A DNA stretch of 29,593 bases from Raphidiopsis brookii D9. GTDB taxonomy: Bacteria > Cyanobacteriota > Cyanobacteriia > Cyanobacteriales > Nostocaceae. A program made the position numbers and the translations under genes. The notes beneath the pieces are model-generated. The model saw only the letters and a program-made list of their open reading frames with translations, searched no databases and was not told the origin of the DNA. The stretch spans positions 1 through 29,593 of the forward strand of contig ACYB01000017.1 in assembly GCA_000175855.1 (NCBI GenBank), in the 5' to 3' direction. Shown one piece after another: positions 1 through 10,873 of the stretch (the first letter of the stretch is position 1; each line of letters opens with the position of its first letter).

Positions 1-115
1 TAACTAAAGTTAGTTATTATTTAATTTGGTGACGGATAGGAATTACAGAGTGTTGGGATGACAAAATTGCCGTAGCTGTTGCAGTATAACCCTTTCAGCG
101 ATTTTTATTCTACTT

Positions 116-133
116 TGATGAATAATCCAGGTT
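116..133. repeat. 18-bp exact repeat tgatgaataatccaggtt (copy 1), at the 5' truncation point of the transposase remnant
   Basis: An identical 18-mer occurs at 18141-18158. Both copies are followed by (t)agga and, about 10 nt later, ttttgccag. Confidence 0.85.
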
Positions 134-710
134 AGGAGAAAAGCAAGTTTTGCCAGTGCACAAACTCAGGAGCATGGCGGAATTCACCCAGCGGTTTCCA
201 GATGTGAAGGAGGTGATTGTGAATGGTACGGAACCTCCAGTGCAACGTCCTCAAAACCGAGAACGCCAAAAGGAGTATTACTCGTGCAAGAAAAAGCAGC
301 ATACGTGCAAGCAGATTACAGTCAGCACCAGAAAGAAACGAGTGATTATTCTGACGAAAACCAGAGCAGGTAAGGTACATGACAAAAGACTACTCCAGGA
401 ATCGGAGATCGTGCAATACATTCCTGATGAGGTAGCAATAGAGGGAGATTTGGGTTTTCAGGGGTTGTAGAAAGAATTTGTCAATGTTCATCTGTCACAC
501 AAGAAACCGAAAGGTAAGGAGTTAACACAGCAGCAAAAACAGGAGAATCGGGAACTGAGTCGTCAGCGAGTTGTATGTGAGCATGCTCATTCTGGAATTA
601 AGAGATATAACTCTGTATATTGTGTGCACAGAAATTGTCTCCTCGATTTTGATGATCACTTAATGTTGGTCGCTGCAGGGTTATGGAACTTCTATTTGGA
701 TGCAGCATAA
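126..710 (+). pseudogene. IS5-family (DDE_Tnp_4 / Harbinger-like) transposase remnant, 5'-truncated, with an in-frame TAG at 468-470
   Basis: ORF 150-470 (..VIVNGTEPPVQRP..QKEYYSCKKKQHTCK..) continues in the same frame after the TAG as KEFVNVHLSHKKPKGKELTQQQKQENRELSRQRVVCEHAHSGIKRY.., with a stop at 708-710. The YSxKKKxHT and HKKPKxxELTxxQKxxN..R..VEH patterns are typical of this transposase family. The N-terminal HTH part is missing; the frame is closed by a TAA at 123-125. Confidence 0.7.
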
Positions 711-804
711 ATTCAATCAGGATGGGGGAAGTTCTGTCGTCCAAAAAATATGCTTTTATTTCCCAATAACTATATTATACATCATACCCTATAGGTGCAA
801 CGAC

Positions 805-970
805 ACAAAGGGCTTTGTCTTGCTAAAAAACTGGGTACTAAAACGTAATTTTAATTAGTTGATGGGCTGTGGGCGTTTCGCTAAAGATTATGAAGTATTT
901 ATTACCTTAAAAAAATCTCAAAAACTTATCTAACTTGCCACAATCCTTATAAAGGTTAGGCGAATCGCAG
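805..970 (+). mobile_element. Degenerate 3'-end remnant of an IS5-type (DDE_Tnp_1, IS427/IS1031-like) transposase gene (remnant A)
   Basis: It translates with stops and frameshifts to ..KGFVLLKKLGTKT.. and LMGCGRFAKDYEVFITLKKSQKLI*LATILIKVRRI. This matches the canonical C-terminus ..RWVVERTFAWLxxxRRLxKDYExxxxxSEAxIYLAxIRLMLRRL. It is about 70% identical at DNA level to 5518-5632. Confidence 0.55.
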
Positions 971-1021
971 AAATTATGACCGCCAAGCACTATTTAAAAC
1001 CCTGTGGCAAGTTTGTATACA

Positions 1022-1651
1022 CTAACGCATGTATGTGTTAAGTGTGTTTGGTGTTGATCTATAGAATAATCTTCGTGCAGTACCAAAGAACTCAGGACTG
1101 CTGAAATTACAAGAAGACCGTGAGTAATTGCATTCTACTTCTTCAAAAGCAGCAGAATCGTAATAAGTTTTCTCTGTTCCACCTGGTTCATCGTAATAAG
1201 CATGAACCATCGAAACGGAGGAAGGAGATAATGTTGTCATCGCTGATTGTACCCGGCGCCCATTCACAAGAAGAGTAACCTGACTAATTCCATCATAACT
1301 CAGTTCTATTCTGTTAATCGGTTGAAGACCTATTGGTCTTCCAGAACCTCCCCTATTGTTACCACAATTCATAAATGTATACCATTGCCCGTCCATGCCA
1401 CCTTTTTTCCCATAAGAAATACCAGCCCCACAATCATTACCTAAATTGAAATAAAAAGAGGCATAACCATATCTAGAGACTTTTATCTGTTGAGGTAATC
1501 TAAGACTTCCTCTAATCGATCCGTATGAGCCTCTACTTATTGAGCGAAAGCCGCTTCTTCCAACTTGAGCATAAGATGTAGAGTGAGGCATTGAACTGAT
1601 AACGATAGAAGTAAGCAGCACAGAACTTAGAAAGTAAAGAGACTTAAACAT
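1022..1651 (-). CDS. Secreted hypothetical protein (209 aa, N-terminal signal peptide, Gly/Arg/Ser-rich start of the mature part, 4 Cys)
   Basis: Complete ORF. A hydrophobic signal (MFKSLYFLSSVLLTSIVISS..SYA-Q) is present, with GAGG-like aggt 8 nt upstream of the ATG. I recognise no family. Confidence 0.6.
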   Translation of the reverse strand: MFKSLYFLSSVLLTSIVISSMPHSTSYAQVGRSGFRSISRGSYGSIRGSLRLPQQIKVSRYGYASFYFNLGNDCGAGISYGKKGGMDGQWYTFMNCGNNRGGSGRPIGLQPINRIELSYDGISQVTLLVNGRRVQSAMTTLSPSSVSMVHAYYDEPGGTEKTYYDSAAFEEVECNYSRSSCNFSSPEFFGTARRLFYRSTPNTLNTYMR

Positions 1652-1922
1652 TTTGTTACCTCATTTAATCAAAGATTAATTGCTTTATTCAGAGCTAAAA
1701 TCCGCAGCATCTACCGCCAATAGCTGCATGAATCTCGGGTTTCTGATAGTCAAAATGGCTACGCCTAAAAGAACAATCAATTTTTGTTCTGCTATGATAA
1801 ATAGCACAGGTTAACCGGAGCAAGCTTAATTTTATTTAAGCACTTGTCAGTGAATTAAGATAAAACCAGTCCATTTTCAACCCAATTTAGCTTTGAGAGA
1901 GGGAATTTATTACCTGGCTCCT

Positions 1923-2218
1923 TAATCAGATTTATGGTGTTCTTTTCCCTACAACTATTACTATTTCCTAACTCTCCAATAATGACAAGAGTTTGAGCAA
2001 CTTTAAAATTCATCCAACTGACACAATTATGTCTCCTTTTACTGATTAAACATTGTAACTTCATTTATATTATTTCCGCATTTCCCCATAACGTCGTATC
2101 AACGAGCTTTGTTTTTCAAGATATAATTAACACAATTATGTCTTTTTTTGTTTCTCTCTTCCTAGGGATGGTGAGAATCCAAAAAAATAGCCCCATAACC
2201 TAATGGGGCTAAAATCTA
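1923..2218. repeat. 296-bp direct repeat, copy 1 (partner 2447-2742, offset 524 bp)
   Basis: Base-by-base comparison shows about 93-95% identity over the full 296 bp. This includes the hairpin tagccccat-aaccta-atggggcta. Confidence 0.9.
2179..2211 (-). terminator. Rho-independent terminator downstream of the peptide gene
   Basis: A 9-bp perfect stem (2188-2196 / 2203-2211) with a 6-nt loop is followed on the minus strand by a T7 run (A-run 2181-2187 on plus). It lies 25 nt after the stop at 2236. Confidence 0.7.
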
Positions 2219-2235
2219 TTTATAACCAAGGTAAC

Positions 2236-2412
2236 CTAGAACCAAGGGGTCCTTGGTTTTGGTCTAGGAATTGGCCATGGTTTAGGAATTGGCCAGAAAC
2301 ATCCACCCATCAAGTTAATTTCTGATCCTGTAAGTTCATTAAGATAGCTCTCAGAATCAGAGAACAAATCTGCACCAGCAGGACGTAAGTCGGAAATAGT
2401 GATATTAGCCAT
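2236..2412 (-). CDS. Double-glycine-leader precursor peptide (58 aa): 37-aa leader plus 21-aa Pro/Trp-rich cationic core
   Basis: MANITISDLRPAGADLFSDSESYLNELTGSEINLMGG | CFWPIPKPWPIPRPKPRTPWF. The leader resembles cyanobacterial GG-type bacteriocin leaders (ISDL.P.G.ELF.DSESFL.EL....I.GG). AAGGGA lies 7 nt upstream of the ATG at 2412. The upstream ATG at 2439 (ORF-track start) has no SD and adds MKLNQRETK. Confidence 0.7.
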   Translation of the reverse strand: MANITISDLRPAGADLFSDSESYLNELTGSEINLMGGCFWPIPKPWPIPRPKPRTPWF

Positions 2413-2446
2413 TTTTGTTTCCCTTTGATTAAGTTTCATTTTGAGG

Positions 2447-2742
2447 TAATCAGATTTATGGTGTTCTTTTCCCTACGACTATTACTATTTCCTAACTCTC
2501 CAATAATGACAAGAGGTTGAGCAACTTTAAAGTTCATCTAACTAGCACAATTATAGCTCTTTTTACCGAATAAACACTGTAACTTCATTTATATTATTTC
2601 CGCATTTCCCCATAACGTCGTATCAACGAGCTTTGTTTTTTAAGATACAATTAACACAATTATGTCTTTTTTTGTTTCTCTCTTCTTAGGGATGGTGGCA
2701 ATCCAAAAAAATAGCCCCATAACCTAATGGGGCTAAAATCTA
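2447..2742. repeat. 296-bp direct repeat, copy 2 (partner 1923-2218)
   Basis: See copy 1. It lies between the HopA1-like gene stop (2787) and the peptide start (2412). Confidence 0.9.
2703..2735 (-). terminator. Rho-independent terminator after the kinase/HopA1-like gene pair
   Basis: It has the same 9-bp stem (2712-2720 / 2727-2735) followed by a T-run on the minus strand (A-run 2705-2711 on plus). It lies 52 nt after the stop at 2787. Confidence 0.7.
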
Positions 2743-2786
2743 CAGATGAACCTATCACTCCTTGATTCCCATATAAGGGACTAATA

Positions 2787-3890
2787 TCAATCAGTCAACT
2801 CTAATCTTTGATAAACATTCTTAGAATCAGCATTTAAATAAGGACGCTGCCAATCAATTCCTAACTCAGAAAACTGCTCGCAAATAGCAGTCATCCGACC
2901 CGCTGCAGAATTCTCCTCCTGTTGCCAAGCCATCAGTAAACCATTGGCTATAATCTGACAGCGATTCATTCCAAAACTCTCCTCACTGCCAAACTTTTTG
3001 TCCGGTTCTTCCGCTAATCCCAAACCCGGTGCTAACTCGAGGGTGAACAAAGGTATTTCTTGCTTAAAAACAAACTGATTTTGGTGATAAACATTACCTA
3101 CAATCTCCCTCACCAATTCATAATCAGTTTTCCCAAAATAAAGCACCCCAGCATCATATCGTTGATAATCAACTGGATTATACAAAGCCTTAAAACTAAA
3201 AGGAATCCCCCTCTGATTCAACTTTTCAGTTAACCCAGCCATCACAGCCACTGCACCTTCGGGAGTAACATTAAAATAGATTCGCACCATGGCTTCCTCT
3301 CTCTGTAAACCAGCATTACCCACCGCCATATAAAAACCATTTTGCACTAAATTCTTGGGCATCAAAATTGATACAACATCACCCACAAATGCAGATTGTT
3401 CATATTCTTGAAGATGCTTGTCACGTTGGATATGTAATCGCAAACCACCCTTAGTTACAGCCAAACTCCCATCGGTTTCTTCTCTCAAAACTGACCACCC
3501 TGAATCAAAATAACCCTCACCCTTATTCGCTTTGTCTAACTGCAAATAAAAGTCCATAGATACACCAGCAAAACTACTATTTTCCAAATCTAATTGCTGA
3601 ACTTTATTCCCATAACCTAATGCCTGTAATTTTTGTGTCGACCCATTGTAATAAGTGCCATAAAGAAAACTCCGCAACTGTAAACTCATATACTTATCCT
3701 GCATTTCCTTGGGTAAAGCCTGAATCCGAGACAACATTTCAGTAGGCATTTCCCATGGTTGATAGTTCGGGTGACGAATCGAAAAATCAGCGGAAATCTC
3801 GACATTTTCAACAATATCTGATAAAACTTCCTTTAAGCGACGTTCAACTTCAGAGGCTAATTGATGAGATTGAGAATTAAGTAATGACAT
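2787..3890 (-). CDS. HopA1-effector-family-like protein (putative phospho-Ser/Thr lyase), 367 aa
   Basis: Complete ORF. The central block VRIYFNVTPEGAVAVMAGLTEKLNQRGIPFSFKALYNPVDYQRYDAGVLYFGKTDY matches my memory of bacterial proteins annotated as T3SS effector HopA1 family. It starts 25 nt after the kinase gene ends, which suggests an operon. The family call was not verified by search. Confidence 0.6.
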   Translation of the reverse strand: MSLLNSQSHQLASEVERRLKEVLSDIVENVEISADFSIRHPNYQPWEMPTEMLSRIQALPKEMQDKYMSLQLRSFLYGTYYNGSTQKLQALGYGNKVQQLDLENSSFAGVSMDFYLQLDKANKGEGYFDSGWSVLREETDGSLAVTKGGLRLHIQRDKHLQEYEQSAFVGDVVSILMPKNLVQNGFYMAVGNAGLQREEAMVRIYFNVTPEGAVAVMAGLTEKLNQRGIPFSFKALYNPVDYQRYDAGVLYFGKTDYELVREIVGNVYHQNQFVFKQEIPLFTLELAPGLGLAEEPDKKFGSEESFGMNRCQIIANGLLMAWQQEENSAAGRMTAICEQFSELGIDWQRPYLNADSKNVYQRLELTD

Positions 3891-3914
3891 GATTTTTCAA
3901 GATACTCAAGGATA

Positions 3915-5081
3915 TTAAACTTTGCCAACAACAGAAGAATTCATCTGATTTAACTGAGTAGCAGTAGCCCCAAAAATAGTGGGCATCGACAATTCAGGAC
4001 GACACAACAAAGCCTTGGCTACCTGAAGCATAGCAATTCCCGTATTATTAAAGGTTTTTTCATGCTGAACCATTGCTAAAATTGCAGTAATTAAAGAAAA
4101 ACCTGCCAACTGTACCACTTGCTTTAAGAAATCAGGTCGATATTTTAAGATTTCTGGGAAAGCTTCTAAATAAGCTAAAGTTAATCCACCGATAGATGGC
4201 TGAATTAATTCTAGGGGAGTAGTCGCTAGTCGCAAAGATTCTTCAATACTAAGAGAATTACTAATCACTAAGCTACCCAACCAAGTTTGTAGATAACTGG
4301 CGATCGCCATTCCCAAATCAAACGCTGGATCTCCCCAATCAGACCTTTCCCAATCAATCAAACGAATCACATTTTCATTAACATCTTCCCATTTTTGAAG
4401 TAAAAGAATGTTATTCAACTTCAAGTCATTGTGAGTTAGACAAATAGGAGAGATAGTTTTACTTAAGAGATTAACTGCTGCTTCTAAGCTATCATATCGT
4501 TGATAAAGAGCAAAAAACTTTAATCCACCCATGGGAACCAGTCCAAAAATTTCTGGACCTATCTGTTCCAAACTATTTAGTAATAGTGGGGATACCTTGG
4601 TTTTTCGAGCAAAATCTTGGGCAAAAAATTCCCTATAAATACTTTTATTCCAAGTTTCACGGTGAATTGTTGCCAAACAACTGCCAATTTGAGCAGCAAC
4701 CTGAGTAGGAAAGACATTCTTTTTAGAGTAGAATTTTGCTAAATCCTCATAATTATCCAGATAAGTAGAAACCAAAATTGAGTTCTCATCATCGTAGAGC
4801 AGTAATTCTGGCAGAAACCTACGCCAATGGTCTAATTCAGGAAAGTTATGCACAAAACTCGGGATTCGCCATTCCCCAAAAAACTCCTTCACCGTTTCCT
4901 TTTCTAAATTAATAAATTTTTCCTGTTTTACCAGTAACTTTCGACCCTCTGGTAAAGTCACCAATAAATTAAAATTTTTAGCCTGAATCTGCTCTACTCC
5001 TGGATTTTCTAGGGAGCGATCGCATAACTTTCTCTTGATAAGATACTCGTTGACATTTTGAGAACTTAAGATAAACTTCAC
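3915..5081 (-). CDS. Aminoglycoside-phosphotransferase/CotS-like protein-kinase-fold phosphotransferase, 388 aa
   Basis: It has the catalytic loop LTHNDLKLNNILL (HxDxxxxN) and the metal-binding IDWERSDWGDPAFDLG motif. Complete ORF. Confidence 0.8.
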   Translation of the reverse strand: MKFILSSQNVNEYLIKRKLCDRSLENPGVEQIQAKNFNLLVTLPEGRKLLVKQEKFINLEKETVKEFFGEWRIPSFVHNFPELDHWRRFLPELLLYDDENSILVSTYLDNYEDLAKFYSKKNVFPTQVAAQIGSCLATIHRETWNKSIYREFFAQDFARKTKVSPLLLNSLEQIGPEIFGLVPMGGLKFFALYQRYDSLEAAVNLLSKTISPICLTHNDLKLNNILLLQKWEDVNENVIRLIDWERSDWGDPAFDLGMAIASYLQTWLGSLVISNSLSIEESLRLATTPLELIQPSIGGLTLAYLEAFPEILKYRPDFLKQVVQLAGFSLITAILAMVQHEKTFNNTGIAMLQVAKALLCRPELSMPTIFGATATQLNQMNSSVVGKV

Positions 5082-5120
5082 TTAAACCTGCCTTTAGATA
5101 GATTAACAACCCACTCGTAC

Positions 5121-5387
5121 TTATCTTACTTTCACTTCTGTTAAATCCCTAACCATATTTAATATCTTTGTAATGTAATTATTTGTATATCTGGTTAGCT
5201 TATAGAACCTACCCCTAATCATAACCAAGGCGTTTAAAAAGGCTTTACTAGCAAGTAAGACGAGGATGTTTTGGTATTTTTGTTCTCTGTACTGTTCGGT
5301 TTTTTCTCTTTCTGCCACCTGGCGAGCTTTTTGATGGTCTTCTTGGGTAAGAGTAATCAGGACTGATTTGAGCATATTAAGTTTCAC
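5121..5387 (-). CDS. Hypothetical 88-aa ORF, possibly an N-terminal fragment of a larger (DUF1822-like?) protein
   Basis: Only an ORF. ITLTQEDHQKARQVAERE..QKYQNILVLLASKAFLNAL weakly recalls DUF1822 N-termini. No clear RBS. Confidence 0.3.
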   Translation of the reverse strand: MKLNMLKSVLITLTQEDHQKARQVAEREKTEQYREQKYQNILVLLASKAFLNALVMIRGRFYKLTRYTNNYITKILNMVRDLTEVKVR

Positions 5388-5499
5388 TTTTTATCTTTTA
5401 GGATAATAGGGGTTAGTTTTGACTCCCAAATGTATATCGTTTAAAGGTGAAGGGTTTTGAATAATTTATTAATTTTATGTTTGGGTCTAGAGATCGGCG

Positions 5500-5632
5500 A
5501 TCGCCCTTGAGAATTAGTTATTAACTTTTGGTTGGTTGATGGACTGCAGGCGTTTGGTTAGAGATTATGAATTATTACTCGAAACATCTAAAACTTTTAT
5601 CTACCTTGCCATAATCCGTATTAAAGATTGGG
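5500..5632 (+). mobile_element. 3'-end remnant of an IS5-type (IS427/IS1031-like) transposase gene (remnant B)
   Basis: It reads LLTFGWLMDCRRLVRDYELLLETSKTFIYLAIIRIKDW, the canonical IS5-family C-terminus. No upstream catalytic part is present. It has the same orientation as remnant A. Confidence 0.6.
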
Positions 5633-5685
5633 TACCACGGCCAAGCTTATTACAAAGAATCCAAGACCTCAACTCGGGGGAAATA
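5633..5685. repeat. Direct repeat copy 1: taccacggccaagcttattacaaagaatccaagacctcaactc..ggaaata
   Basis: The 43-bp core differs at 2 positions from 7935-7977. It directly follows IS remnant B. Confidence 0.85.
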
Positions 5686-5686
5686 C

Positions 5687-7988
5687 GTGACCCCAATTGA
5701 CAAAATTCCTGCCCACTTGTTAGCAAACTATGTTATACTCAGCCACAGTATGTCCTCGTATGTCTTGAATACTCTACCCAAATACCACCCTATGACCATT
5801 AACATCATACTCAGAGTATTAAACGGTAACTTCAATGAAGGATTCATTATAGATGTCATCACGGATGGAAAAACCGAACAACTCTCCATCATCCAAAACA
5901 GAAACATACCAAAGCTTTACAGTAAATGGCAATATATTTTACACCGCAACACAATACGTAAGATTTCTGACATAGAAGAACAAGAAACACACATAAGCAC
6001 AGAAAAGCTAAGAAATGCCAAAACAGAATTGGAAAAAGAGTATAAACAATGGCTCAATAACCAAAACATTGGTATGCTCATTAGCAACATGATAGAGTTG
6101 TCAACATCTTCCCCTAGCCAGTCCCCTCAAAACCCAAATTTAATTCGTATTCAACTTATCCTTTCAGATACCCTTAATCCTAATGCTCAACAAGATAACG
6201 ATATTCTCCGTAGACTGCCCTGGAATGCCTACTTGAGTAGTTATATTCGTTTTAACAATTATGATACAACCTTCCTCCTATCCAAAGATCATACCTCCAC
6301 ACCTTCCCATCCAAATTTATTTAGTTCAAACCCACCGAAAATCCTAGCCATATTTGGTGGACACCAGGGGGAATTGGCATGCAGTCAAGCTGATGAAGCC
6401 AATAGACTCAAAGAAATCTGTGAACCCAACGGTGCAACCGTCATCTTCAGAAACATCACAGATAGAAACGAATTTCATCAACTACTAATCAATGACAATT
6501 ATGACATCCTATTCTACTCCGGACACAGTACCAGTGACCAGGGAGGCACAATTCAATTTGAACAAGAAACCTCCATCATTCGGGATTTTAAAAATGACCT
6601 CATCCGTGCGGTAAAAAAAGGAATTAAAAATAGCTATTTTTAACTCCTGTGACGGACTGAAAATAGCAGACTTTCTTATAGAAGAAGTGGGGATGCCAGC
6701 CGTCATCGTCATGAAGGAACCAGTACCAGACGAATTTGCCCGGGAATTTTTAGAAAGGTTTTTAATCCATTTTGTAAAAGAATGCAATTTTCTCTCAGTA
6801 GCAGTAGAAAAAGCTGCAAAAGACATTCTTTATAAGGAAGATCAAGAATTTCCTGGGGCAACCTGGTTACCCATAACCTACTATTCAAATGCAAAATCAG
6901 AAGAATTTACCTGGAGTAAAAAAAATCAAATATACAAAAACCGTATAGATATTAAAATCCACAACTACTTATACCAAAGACAAGAAGAAAACTCTCTTTG
7001 TCCTTACCAGGGACTATTTCACTTCGGACCAGAAGAAGCAGAATATTTCTTCGGGCGACAAATATTTATCGAACAACTATATGAAGCCACACAAAACCGT
7101 AAATTTATCCCCATCCTTGGTGCATCTGGCAGTGGTAAATCTTCAGTAGTATTAGCGGGGTTAGTACCAAAATTAAAAAACCAAGGCAACTGGGAATTTA
7201 CCTACTTCAGACCAGGGAAAGAACCCTTCCCTGCCCTAGCCACAGCCCTAATACCCCTTCTGTATACCTCAGAATTAGACACTATAGAAAAAATGGCTCA
7301 AGGGCGTATCTTAGCCACACACCTCCAAACAGGAACCATCCCCTTATCCGACGTTTTCACTCAAATCCAACAAAAACACCCCACAGAAAAAGTATTAATC
7401 ATAGCCGACCAATTTGAAGAGATTTACACCATGTGTCCAGAGCCAGAAACTCGCCAGCAATTTCTGGATTGCCTGATAGCTAGTCTTTCAATACCCAACA
7501 GCCCGATAGTATTAGTAACAACCATGCGGGCCGACTTTCTCTCGGATGCGCTATCTTATAGACCCTTTGGCGACACATTGCAAAACGCAGACCTCAAAAT
7601 TCTAGCCATGAACCGGGAAGAATTGACAGAAGTAATTATAAAACCAGCGGAAAAACTAGGAGTATCATTTGAACAGGGACTAGCAGCCAGAATCCTAAAT
7701 GACCTAGAACAGCAACCGGGGAATTTACCCCTACTAGAATTTGCCCTGACACAACTGTGGAATCAACACCATGAGTGGCAATTAACCCACAATGCCTACG
7801 AAAAGATTGGCCAAGTACAAGGAGCATTAGCCCGCTACGCAGATGAAAAATATAGTAACCTAACAAAAACAGAACAAGAAACAGTAGAAGTATTGCATGA
7901 AGCCCTAATTCGAGATTGGGGAGAAAGGATTGAATACCACAGCCAAGCTTATTACAAAGAACCCAAGACCTCAACTCTCAGGAAATAG
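5687..7988 (+). pseudogene. CHAT protease domain - nSTAND-type P-loop NTPase (STAND) gene, frameshifted and 3'-truncated
   Basis: ORF 5687-6643 ends ..DILFYSGHSTSD..AVKKGIKNSYF*. The +1 frame then continues IAIFNSCDGLKIADFL..GMPAVIVMKEPVPDEFAREF, so the CHAT catalytic His (SGHS) and Cys (NSCDG) lie on either side of a 1-nt frameshift within 6615-6640 (A-runs). ORF 6687-7988 carries CPYQGLFHFGPEEAEYFFGRQ..ILGASGSGKSSVVLAGLVPKL (Walker A), IIADQFEE (Walker B) and HEALIRDW. It then stops inside the 43-bp repeat, with no WD40/TPR sensor repeats. Confidence 0.75.
7935..7987. repeat. Direct repeat copy 2 (partner 5633-5685)
   Basis: See copy 1. It replaces the expected 3' continuation of the STAND gene. 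Confidence 0.85.
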
Positions 7989-10325: not shown

Positions 10326-10438
10326 ATATGGTTAATTGATGTTTGTTTGAGAATGGTTCATATTGTTTAGTATATGGTGTGGAGGTAATTTTTGGAAAGG
10401 GAGCTAATGGCGGAAAACCTCTCCAAATAATCCAACTA

Positions 10439-10873
10439 TTAAGTATCACCTATACCTGTATATTGATCACTACCAAATATTGCCTCCGGGTAACGGTAGT
10501 ATTTAAACTCCATGATGTTGTAAAAAGGGTCTTCCAAGAAAAAAGTTCGGTGTTCTAGGGGAGAACCAACAAAGCGATTTTTCGGTTCTTCTCTAAAATT
10601 CAACTCTTTATTTTTGGCAGATTCTAGGAGTTCTTGCCAATCCTCCTCTTGGGTAAACACTAAACCAAAATGCCTAGGATAAATGGCCTTTTGAGGTGTT
10701 AACGCTTCTTTTGTGATATGTGCTACTAGTTGATGACCGCAAAGATTCAGGATTAAAGCATGGGGGTTTTCTCGACCAGGTATACAGCCTAATCCGTCAA
10801 TATAAAAAGCTTTAGTTTGAACAATATCCCCAACAGGAAATGCTAAGTGAAATATAGTTTTCATGGTTACCAA
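10439..10873 (-). CDS. VOC (glyoxalase/bleomycin-resistance/dioxygenase) family protein, 144 aa
   Basis: The N-terminal FHLAFPVGDIVQTKAFYIDGLGC and later HFGLVF..EDPFYN resemble the VOC beta-alpha-beta-beta-beta modules. The start could instead be the ATG at 10864. Confidence 0.65.
   Translation of the reverse strand: MVTMKTIFHLAFPVGDIVQTKAFYIDGLGCIPGRENPHALILNLCGHQLVAHITKEALTPQKAIYPRHFGLVFTQEEDWQELLESAKNKELNFREEPKNRFVGSPLEHRTFFLEDPFYNIMEFKYYRYPEAIFGSDQYTGIGDT

Follow-up and report, generated by a model that had tools for sequence, protein, structure and literature searches.

What does a cyanobacterium make from a small gene whose product is so rich in proline and tryptophan that it recalls the proline-rich antimicrobial peptides (PrAMPs) of animals? 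The question is raised by CRD_01030 of Raphidiopsis brookii D9, which lies at 2236..2412 on the minus strand of contig ACYB01000017.1 (29,593 nt; this whole stretch is referred to as the window). The gene encodes 58 amino acids (aa) plus a stop, and its protein-database entry is 100% identical. An earlier interpretation made from the letters alone, which we call the sequence-only reading, had proposed a leader-exported PrAMP-like bacteriocin. Our analysis indicates that CRD_01030 is very probably the precursor of a RiPP (a peptide made on the ribosome and modified after translation) of the cyanobacterial kinase/HopA1-lyase family (Family 1A; type-B LanA). Family identity and biosynthetic route taken jointly, activity not included, are probable at a clearly lower level of confidence. 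The D9 peptide is a new, atypical member of a family already known from genome mining.

The open reading frame (ORF) extends over 2236..2439 on the minus strand in the ORF list, and the NCBI model of CRD_01030 uses the second ATG, at 2412, which is preceded by a ribosome-binding-like AAGGGA; the in-frame ATG at 2439 would lengthen the protein by MKLNQRETK. The 37-aa leader peptide MANITISDLRPAGADLFSDSESYLNELTGSEINLMGG (2302..2412, minus strand) ends in a double-glycine (GG) cleavage motif. It is followed by the core peptide CFWPIPKPWPIPRPKPRTPWF (2239..2301, minus strand), which has 21 aa, a net charge of +4, 38% Pro and 14% Trp, and comprises 8 Pro, 3 Trp, 2 Phe, 2 Lys, 2 Arg and zero Asp or Glu. 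The single Cys is Cys1 (codon 2299-2301) and the single Thr is Thr18 (codon 2248-2250). An 18-nt tandem duplication (2260..2295, minus strand, 17/18 nt identical) codes for WPIPKP and WPIPRP, and the sole difference between its units, TGGCCAATTCCTAAACCA and TGGCCAATTCCTAGACCA, is AAA to AGA. The 13-mer TAGGAATTGGCCA is found exactly at 2265-2277 and 2283-2295, with 0.06 matches expected by chance, and no further copy exists anywhere in the window with one mismatch tolerated. The duplication is, judging from this pattern, a recent tandem duplication. The sequence-only reading had all of this right: the core sequence and residue counts, the Thr at position 18 and the DNA duplication with its 18-bp period.

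The family assignment is carried by the leader, which matches the family profile with E = 5.9e-24. This match and an identical core in Cylindrospermopsis raciborskii show that the ORF, taken as genuine in the sequence-only reading, is real and conserved. Queried with the precursor, the protein database yielded 157 proteins; the best 120 of the 157 share the leader pattern MANITISDLRPAGADLFSDSESYL..L...E....GG in front of entirely different cores, and nearly all of these 120 come from cyanobacteria or cyanobacterial blooms. Scanning one genome per species with the leader alignment revealed 59 genomic loci in many cyanobacterial genera, including Microcystis, Arthrospira, Trichodesmium, Okeania, Nodularia, Nostoc, Calothrix, Rivularia, and Coleofasciculus. 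Pfam and NCBIfam had no match for the precursor or the core. When 1.84 billion representatives were searched by phmmer with the core only (30 aa), the single hit was an unrelated, repetitive protein of 444 aa (E = 1.5e-4); this search did not recover the D9 peptide itself, presumably because clustering at 50% identity masks peptides that share a leader.

Eyles et al. 2021 described Family 1A, which is confined to cyanobacteria, as 570 peptides from 183 clusters whose variable cores follow a GG leader (PMC8153245), and Liang et al. 2022 named the group type-B LanA (PMC9486802). Peptides with the D9-type leader appear in the supplement of the former study, the supplementary text of which contains neither "Raphidiopsis" nor the D9 core. 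D9 shares with this group the double-glycine leader, the adjacent kinase and HopA1 genes, the cyanobacterial host, and a highly variable core; clusters of the family hold several precursors each. It differs from the sampled cores of the group in its top rank for Pro, its single Thr, and its N-terminal Cys.

We compared the core with 227 distinct family cores from the related loci L001-L064 and the entries P0001-P0120. Pro content, which the sequence-only reading had called unusual, places D9 first of the 227 (38%), followed by the variant from the closely related metagenome contig L002 (28%). Other Pro/Thr-rich repeat cores occur in Rivularia, Microcystis, Microseira, and Nodularia, and one core contains TPIPRPRPR. 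Internal repeats are common: a repeated 5-mer is present in 47/227 cores, compared with 10.5 +/- 2.9 in shuffles. Since this is so, the tandem repeat of D9 appears to be the usual way in which family cores arise and no special signature. Ser or Thr is found in 222/227 cores (98%) and Cys in 160/227. Because nearly all family cores contain Ser/Thr, the single Thr18 is a plausible modification target, as the sequence-only reading had suggested; one close variant, described below, has Leu in its place. [ST]P dipeptides are enriched (106 observed vs 54 +/- 6 in shuffled cores, with a maximum of 71 in 500 shuffles), and Thr18 of D9 lies in a T-P dipeptide.

Directly upstream of CRD_01030 and on the same strand are genes for a HopA1-type phospho-Ser/Thr lyase (LanY/LxmY-like, 367 aa, 2787..3890, minus strand; PF17914, E = 4e-65) and an aminoglycoside phosphotransferase (APH)-fold kinase (LanK/LxmK-like, 388 aa, 3915..5081, minus strand; PF01636, E = 1.3e-10). 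The best solved relative of the lyase is LxmY (9DK1_B, E = 4.5e-8). The kinase matches the NCBIfam model NF038156 (LxmK) over nearly its full length (E = 1.2e-23), and a PDB search with it did not recover 9DK1 chain A (LxmK) at E <= 0.01. The lyase is 97% identical to that of L002, with a dN/dS of 0.15, and the kinase has a dN/dS of 0.43 against the same contig. Both enzyme genes are intact and under purifying selection.

Kinase and lyase pairs of this kind are known from class V lanthipeptides (lexapeptide with LxmK/LxmY, cacaoidin with CaoK/CaoY, and pristinin A3), which have so far been obtained only from actinobacteria according to a 2025 review (PMC12328550). Common to these systems and the D9 locus are a separate APH-fold kinase, a HopA1-fold lyase, and a leader-bearing precursor. 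The D9 locus differs in that its leader belongs to another family, its kinase falls below the LxmK equivalog cut-off, and it has no LanX cyclase, no cysteine decarboxylase for aminovinyl-methyl-cysteine (AviMeCys), and no F420 reductase, the peptide instead having a GG leader and, presumably, export by a peptidase-containing ABC (ATP-binding cassette) transporter (PCAT).

By analogy with the LxmKY and CaoKY systems (PMC9486802; PMC12141560), the leader would dock the precursor on a kinase-lyase heterodimer, Thr18 (in PRTPWF) would be phosphorylated, and elimination of the phosphate would leave dehydrobutyrine (Dhb). Cys1 may then add to the dehydrobutyrine and form one methyllanthionine ring spanning residues 1-18; with one Cys and one Thr, the D9 core allows one ring. 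An exporter with a C39 peptidase and an ABC domain, encoded elsewhere in the D9 genome, would cut after Gly-Gly and export the peptide. We consider dehydration of Thr18 probable and the Cys1-Thr18 ring rather doubtful. The computed mass of the 21-residue core is 2645.42 Da unmodified ([M+4H]4+ 662.363) and 2627.41 Da dehydrated ([M+4H]4+ 657.861). In cinnamycin, a methyllanthionine from Cys1 to residue 18 closes nearly the whole peptide into one ring, so that the class II peptides cinnamycin and duramycin provide a precedent for the proposed topology; unlike the D9 peptide they are made by LanM, carry three further cross-links, and have an unrelated sequence and target (phosphatidylethanolamine).

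Close relatives document the history of the precursor gene. In C. raciborskii GCA_002027345.1 (L001), three tandem precursor genes lie beside rotamase-HlyD-PCAT. Gene 1 reads ...SNIGG-LTPIVIRVVIPLVIRVVIKIGK; gene 2, which is uncalled in the assembly, reads MATIKVNNLNKTGLYLFDDSESYLNELTGSEINLMGG-CFWPIPKPWPIPRPKPRTPWF and has a core identical to that of D9 (10407-10520); gene 3 reads ...TYGG-YKSDSAAICKYFGPSSASCKYAKLKGR. Window positions 2367-1923 are 99.55% identical to L001 10389-10833 (445 nt, gene 2), and positions 2641-2313 match the region of gene 1 with 99.1% identity. Both matches include GATTCTGAGAGCTATCTTAATGAACTTACAG, which is identical in the two leaders (compared over window 2313-2367 and L001 10040-10420). 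Because the gene-1 and gene-2 matches overlap in this shared leader segment, the D9 precursor is a chimera in which the gene-1 promoter and 5' leader are joined, within a 29-nt identical stretch, to the gene-2 3' leader and core. A deletion between the leaders took out core 1 and the gene-2-specific leader start while keeping the frame.

The metagenome contig L002 is collinear with window positions 5686-2313 (97.4%), and its gene 2 encodes the core CFTPPWKWPIRRPRTPWF, which recurs without change on 9 contigs representing at least 8 samples of metagenomes. When L002 and D9 were aligned by codon, the indels (3 and 6 nt) kept the frame, and the conserved Phe, Arg, and Phe codons of CF and RTPWF differed synonymously, a pattern that fits translation of the core under constraint. 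The same features among the relatives favour the minus-strand frame over an antisense ORF at 2203..2325 (plus strand), which lacks both a leader and relatives and which we rejected as a true gene. Searching with both gene-2 precursors identified two further metagenome variants, one in L065 (3157-3321; core CFIPPWRPWPWPRLPWL), where the kinase-HopA1 region has 87% nucleotide identity to D9, and one in L068 (core FYWTYYIRKIPPIRPPKIWV). DNA patterns for the leader end and the gene-2 leader start were unmatched in scans of metagenome_contigs, though JGI contigs with these sequences exist. All four variants are 17-21 aa long and carry a net charge of +2 to +4; they begin with an aromatic residue, have Pro, Trp, and basic residues in the middle, and end in PW[FL] or IWV. 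The tandem hexapeptide is restricted to D9 and L001, and Cys1 is absent in L068.

The proteins of D9 and C. raciborskii were mapped onto the related loci and all ORFs were clustered. The typical layout is kinase, HopA1, and 1 to 10 precursor genes, followed on the opposite strand by a parvulin-type rotamase, HlyD, a cNMP (cyclic nucleotide monophosphate)-binding/C39-peptidase/ABC exporter, and a helix-turn-helix (HTH) protein. The rotamase has a SurA-N-like region and no signal peptide. Among 64 related loci, HopA1 is found in 50, the kinase in 45, the rotamase in 48, and HlyD and PCAT in 38 each; in an analysis of 61 related loci the conserved gene families were kinase, HopA1, rotamase, HlyD, PCAT, and HTH. 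Some loci have extras: 17 encode an aldo/keto reductase together with another rotamase, and 10 encode a radical SAM protein. PCAT and HlyD adjoin the matching precursor genes in C. raciborskii and in the 38 loci that carry them. Wang et al. 2011 reported one group I cluster with a long C39-ABC protein, HlyD, and SurA for D9 (PMC3140520, Table 1), and the D9 exporter is probably located on another contig; CRD_01030 is not listed in the supplements of that study.

A side observation concerns the rotamase. The [ST]-Pro dipeptides enriched in the cores are often at core positions 2-3, and the cytoplasmic parvulin prolyl isomerase, for example at L001 11281-12012, is present in a second copy in some clusters. 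Enriched [ST]-Pro sites beside a conserved cytoplasmic parvulin suggest that kinase, parvulin, and phospho-lyase could act together, with a Pin1-like isomerisation of phospho-Ser/Thr-Pro preceding the action of the HopA1 lyase. The literature was searched for a link between HopA1 and parvulin, and no paper making one was found.

Several observations weigh against the proposed family membership and route. The D9 kinase scores 83.7 bits against the LxmK model, for which the curated equivalog cut-off is 315. No LanC or second APH-fold LanX is encoded in the window, and neither is conserved in related clusters. Of the cluster, the window has the kinase, the lyase, and one precursor only; the rotamase, HlyD, C39-ABC exporter, and HTH genes are absent, and the remainder consists of housekeeping genes, a CHAT/STAND gene, and a trypsin-TPR protein. 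The literature searched gave no cyanobacterial member with a determined structure or activity. The L065 core is without any Ser/Thr, Leu replacing the Thr, so dehydration is not essential to the Pro/Trp core lineage. This Ser/Thr-free core sits behind a family leader and beside a kinase/HopA1 pair; either the L065 peptide is exported unmodified or the enzymes act on it otherwise. Finally, the D9 locus shows decay, having lost the third precursor and the first core, and is flanked by insertion sequence (IS) remnants on both sides.

Such decay could mean that the D9 locus is a remnant, the fused precursor of which is no longer made, matured, or exported. The deletions, an orphan promoter copy left behind, the absence of the exporter half from the window, IS5-like transposase remnants at 150-900 and 5526-5700, and the reduced genome of D9 would all fit this explanation. 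We nevertheless regard it as quite unlikely: no ORF among kinase, lyase, and precursor is broken or out of frame, dN/dS of the enzymes against a relative is 0.15-0.43, the fusion left reading frame, promoter region, and terminator in place, and one exporter cluster is reported elsewhere in D9 (PMC3140520).

What, then, of the resemblance to PrAMPs? The mature peptide could be their bacterial counterpart, entering cells by SbmA/BacA-type uptake and blocking the ribosomal exit tunnel or peptide release. The D9 core resembles Bac7, oncocin, apidaecin, and drosocin in length, high Pro, and positive charge; it has no acidic residue, alternating P-x-P, and one PRP, and it has the PIPRP/PRP motif in common with Bac7. 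We made local alignments with eleven reference peptides and scored them against shuffled cores (22 comparisons). The D9 core scored 54 against Bac7(1-35), compared with 32 +/- 6 for shuffled cores (reached by 0.2% of shuffles), a result that is marginal after correction for the 22 comparisons. For oncocin, metalnikowin, and apidaecin the result was borderline, the observed score being reached by 3.5-5.4% of shuffles, and no significance over shuffles was seen for drosocin, pyrrhocoricin, PR-39, Tur1A, or Bac5. The L002 core, the sole variant scored, exceeded its shuffles against no PrAMP.

Composition also separates the D9 core from the reference PrAMPs, as it has 10% Arg vs 15-31% and 14% Trp (three residues) vs 0%. 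There is no homology by Pfam, and the D9 core comes from a bacterial RiPP context with a leader and possibly a dehydroamino acid or ring. The alternation of Pro stems from the recent 18-nt duplication; the L002, L065, and L068 cores have neither the tandem hexapeptide nor alternating P-x-P. The PrAMP resemblance is real in composition and periodicity, is peculiar to the duplicated D9 form, and is no evidence of mechanism. Our literature search found no bacterial PrAMP precedent. We consider a PrAMP-type mode of action very unlikely. Equally improbable in our estimate is the fuller scenario of a cyanobacterial RiPP that has converged on an animal host-defence design, in which a Pro/Trp-rich peptide with Dhb or a Cys1-Abu18 (2-aminobutyric acid) ring enters competitors and blocks their ribosomes, as the first bacterial PrAMP analogue. 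If true, a PrAMP-like mechanism would be a striking convergence between bacteria and animals. From the bacteriocin proposed by the sequence-only reading, what stands is a ribosomally made precursor that has a double-glycine leader and is encoded just after the genes for a kinase and a HopA1-type lyase; the likeness to PrAMPs is weakened and goes beyond composition against Bac7 only.

Trp/Pro-rich peptides such as indolicidin (ILPWKWPWWPWRR) and tritrpticin are likewise short, cationic, and rich in Trp and Pro. The L002 variant contains the indolicidin pentapeptide PWKWP. This likeness is compositional only (0.076 of shuffles reach the L002 score against indolicidin, and the D9 core scores below its own shuffles), and the D9 peptide differs from both in origin and biosynthesis. 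The conserved character of the clade fits Trp/Pro-rich cationic peptides at least as well as PrAMPs. The conserved aromatic, basic, and proline character of the variants points to an indolicidin-type membrane or envelope interaction rather than a PrAMP-like ribosome block. An antimicrobial or allelopathic peptide is the most likely role; the antimicrobial role in itself we rate as possible, at somewhat less than an even chance.

An exported peptide could instead serve its producer, in signalling, in the filament or biofilm matrix, or in surface properties, and need not be an antibiotic. The small GG-motif proteins EbfG1-4 of Synechococcus elongatus are reported to enable biofilm development (PMC4997328). 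The Pfam/NCBIfam annotation of the window includes no recognisable immunity gene at the locus, and in related clusters the HTH protein and the exporter's cNMP-binding domain suggest that export is regulated and perhaps depends on a signal. On the other hand, clusters in which several precursors keep one leader and vary extremely in their cores show the usual pattern of an antagonistic library, and short cationic aromatic peptides are typically membrane-active. We judge a non-antibiotic function unlikely, and continue to favour an antimicrobial or allelopathic one.

The gene 1 and gene 2 pair is kept in L001, L002, and L065, and this conservation raises the possibility of a two-peptide system. 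For the enzymology of the family, the D9 locus is close to the simplest test case, with one kinase, one lyase, one precursor, a single Thr, and a single Cys, so that mass spectrometry should give a clear answer on the enzyme chemistry. The small clade of Pro/Trp-rich cationic cores is cheap to synthesise, and its antibacterial or allelopathic activity would be relevant to bloom ecology. The kinase/HopA1 family occurs in the bloom formers Microcystis, Raphidiopsis/Cylindrospermopsis, Arthrospira, Trichodesmium, and Nodularia.

The D9 kinase and lyase have 83-88% protein identity to those of Microcystis/Arthrospira and only 53-63% to those of Nostoc, Calothrix, and Nodularia (window 2787-5081 compared with L009, L012, L019, L029, L046, and L052). 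Being closer to Microcystis/Arthrospira than to other Nostocales, the enzymes suggest horizontal transfer of the cluster among bloom-forming cyanobacteria. Three contigs binned outside the cyanobacteria, L006, L010 (a Crocinitomicaceae metagenome-assembled genome, MAG), and L045 (a Rhizobium sp. Q54 MAG, with ten precursors), carry typical cyanobacterial precursor, kinase, HopA1, and rotamase genes and are most likely mis-binned cyanobacterial contigs.

Terminator-like hairpins with T-runs lie on either side of the peptide gene. One such hairpin, TAGCCCCATTAGGTTATGGGGCTA followed by T7, is located at 2181..2211 (minus strand), 25 nt past the CRD_01030 stop, and a matching TAGCCCCATTAGGTTATGGGGCTA hairpin is located at 2712-2735, after the HopA1 gene. 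Both fall in copies of a 296-nt direct repeat on the minus strand. Copy A (2447..2742) is the conserved upstream region of the precursor and contains the HopA1-gene terminator, a TATAAT-like box, and a leader region of ~100 nt; it is 78-83% conserved in Microcystis and Arthrospira. Copy B (1923..2218, 94% identical to copy A) is an orphan precursor upstream region. It precedes the third precursor gene in relatives and is followed in D9 instead by 233 nt of unmatched sequence (1690-1922) and then a 209-aa gene.

Within copy A we found a non-coding element, ATAATTGTGCTAGTTAGATGAACTTTAAAGTTGCTCAA... (2483-2554, minus strand), that lies 70-120 nt upstream of precursor start codons. It is present in Raphidiopsis, Microcystis, Arthrospira, Okeania, and Trichodesmium (L006, L007, L008, L014, L019, L020, L022, L029, L039, L046, and L052), with several copies before Okeania precursor genes. 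In appearance it combines a -10 box with a conserved 5' leader in which TTTAAA is the centre of an imperfect palindrome, and it is a candidate that may be bound by the HTH protein of the cluster. A search of window positions 1-6000 against Rfam found no family, and the element had no Rfam match. In some gene calls it is translated as MNFKVA.... We rejected the corresponding upstream ORF (MNFKVAQ..., 2436..2537) as a protein, as the two D9 copies differ non-synonymously and its frame relation to the precursor varies by genus; a promoter and 5' leader fit better.

Two further ORFs lie next to these genes. An 88-aa ORF (5121..5387, minus strand) upstream of the kinase is conserved in L002, has a weak match to a DUF1822 fragment as its only hit, and is of uncertain cluster membership. 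In both D9 and L002 the precursor array is followed by the gene for the 209-aa protein (1022..1651, minus strand), the N-terminus of which is signal-like; Pfam, NCBIfam, and PDB gave no relative of it. The protein is 91% conserved directly after the L002 precursor array, and another metagenome contig carries it as a 209-aa gene. We did not retain it as a conserved cluster member because it is shared with the closest relative only and is absent from the clusters of other genera.

The block formed by the 88-aa ORF, kinase, lyase, precursor, and 209-aa gene is flanked by the degraded IS5/DDE_Tnp_4 transposase remnants mentioned above, which have the same orientation and include a 51-nt direct repeat (849-899 and 5526-5576, 80%). 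Beyond the block, a CHAT domain is split over two plus-strand ORFs (5687-6643 and 6687-7988), the second of which runs into an nSTAND1 NTPase domain that covers only positions 1-288 of the 379 in the model; window positions 5687-7988 are probably a disrupted CHAT-STAND gene.

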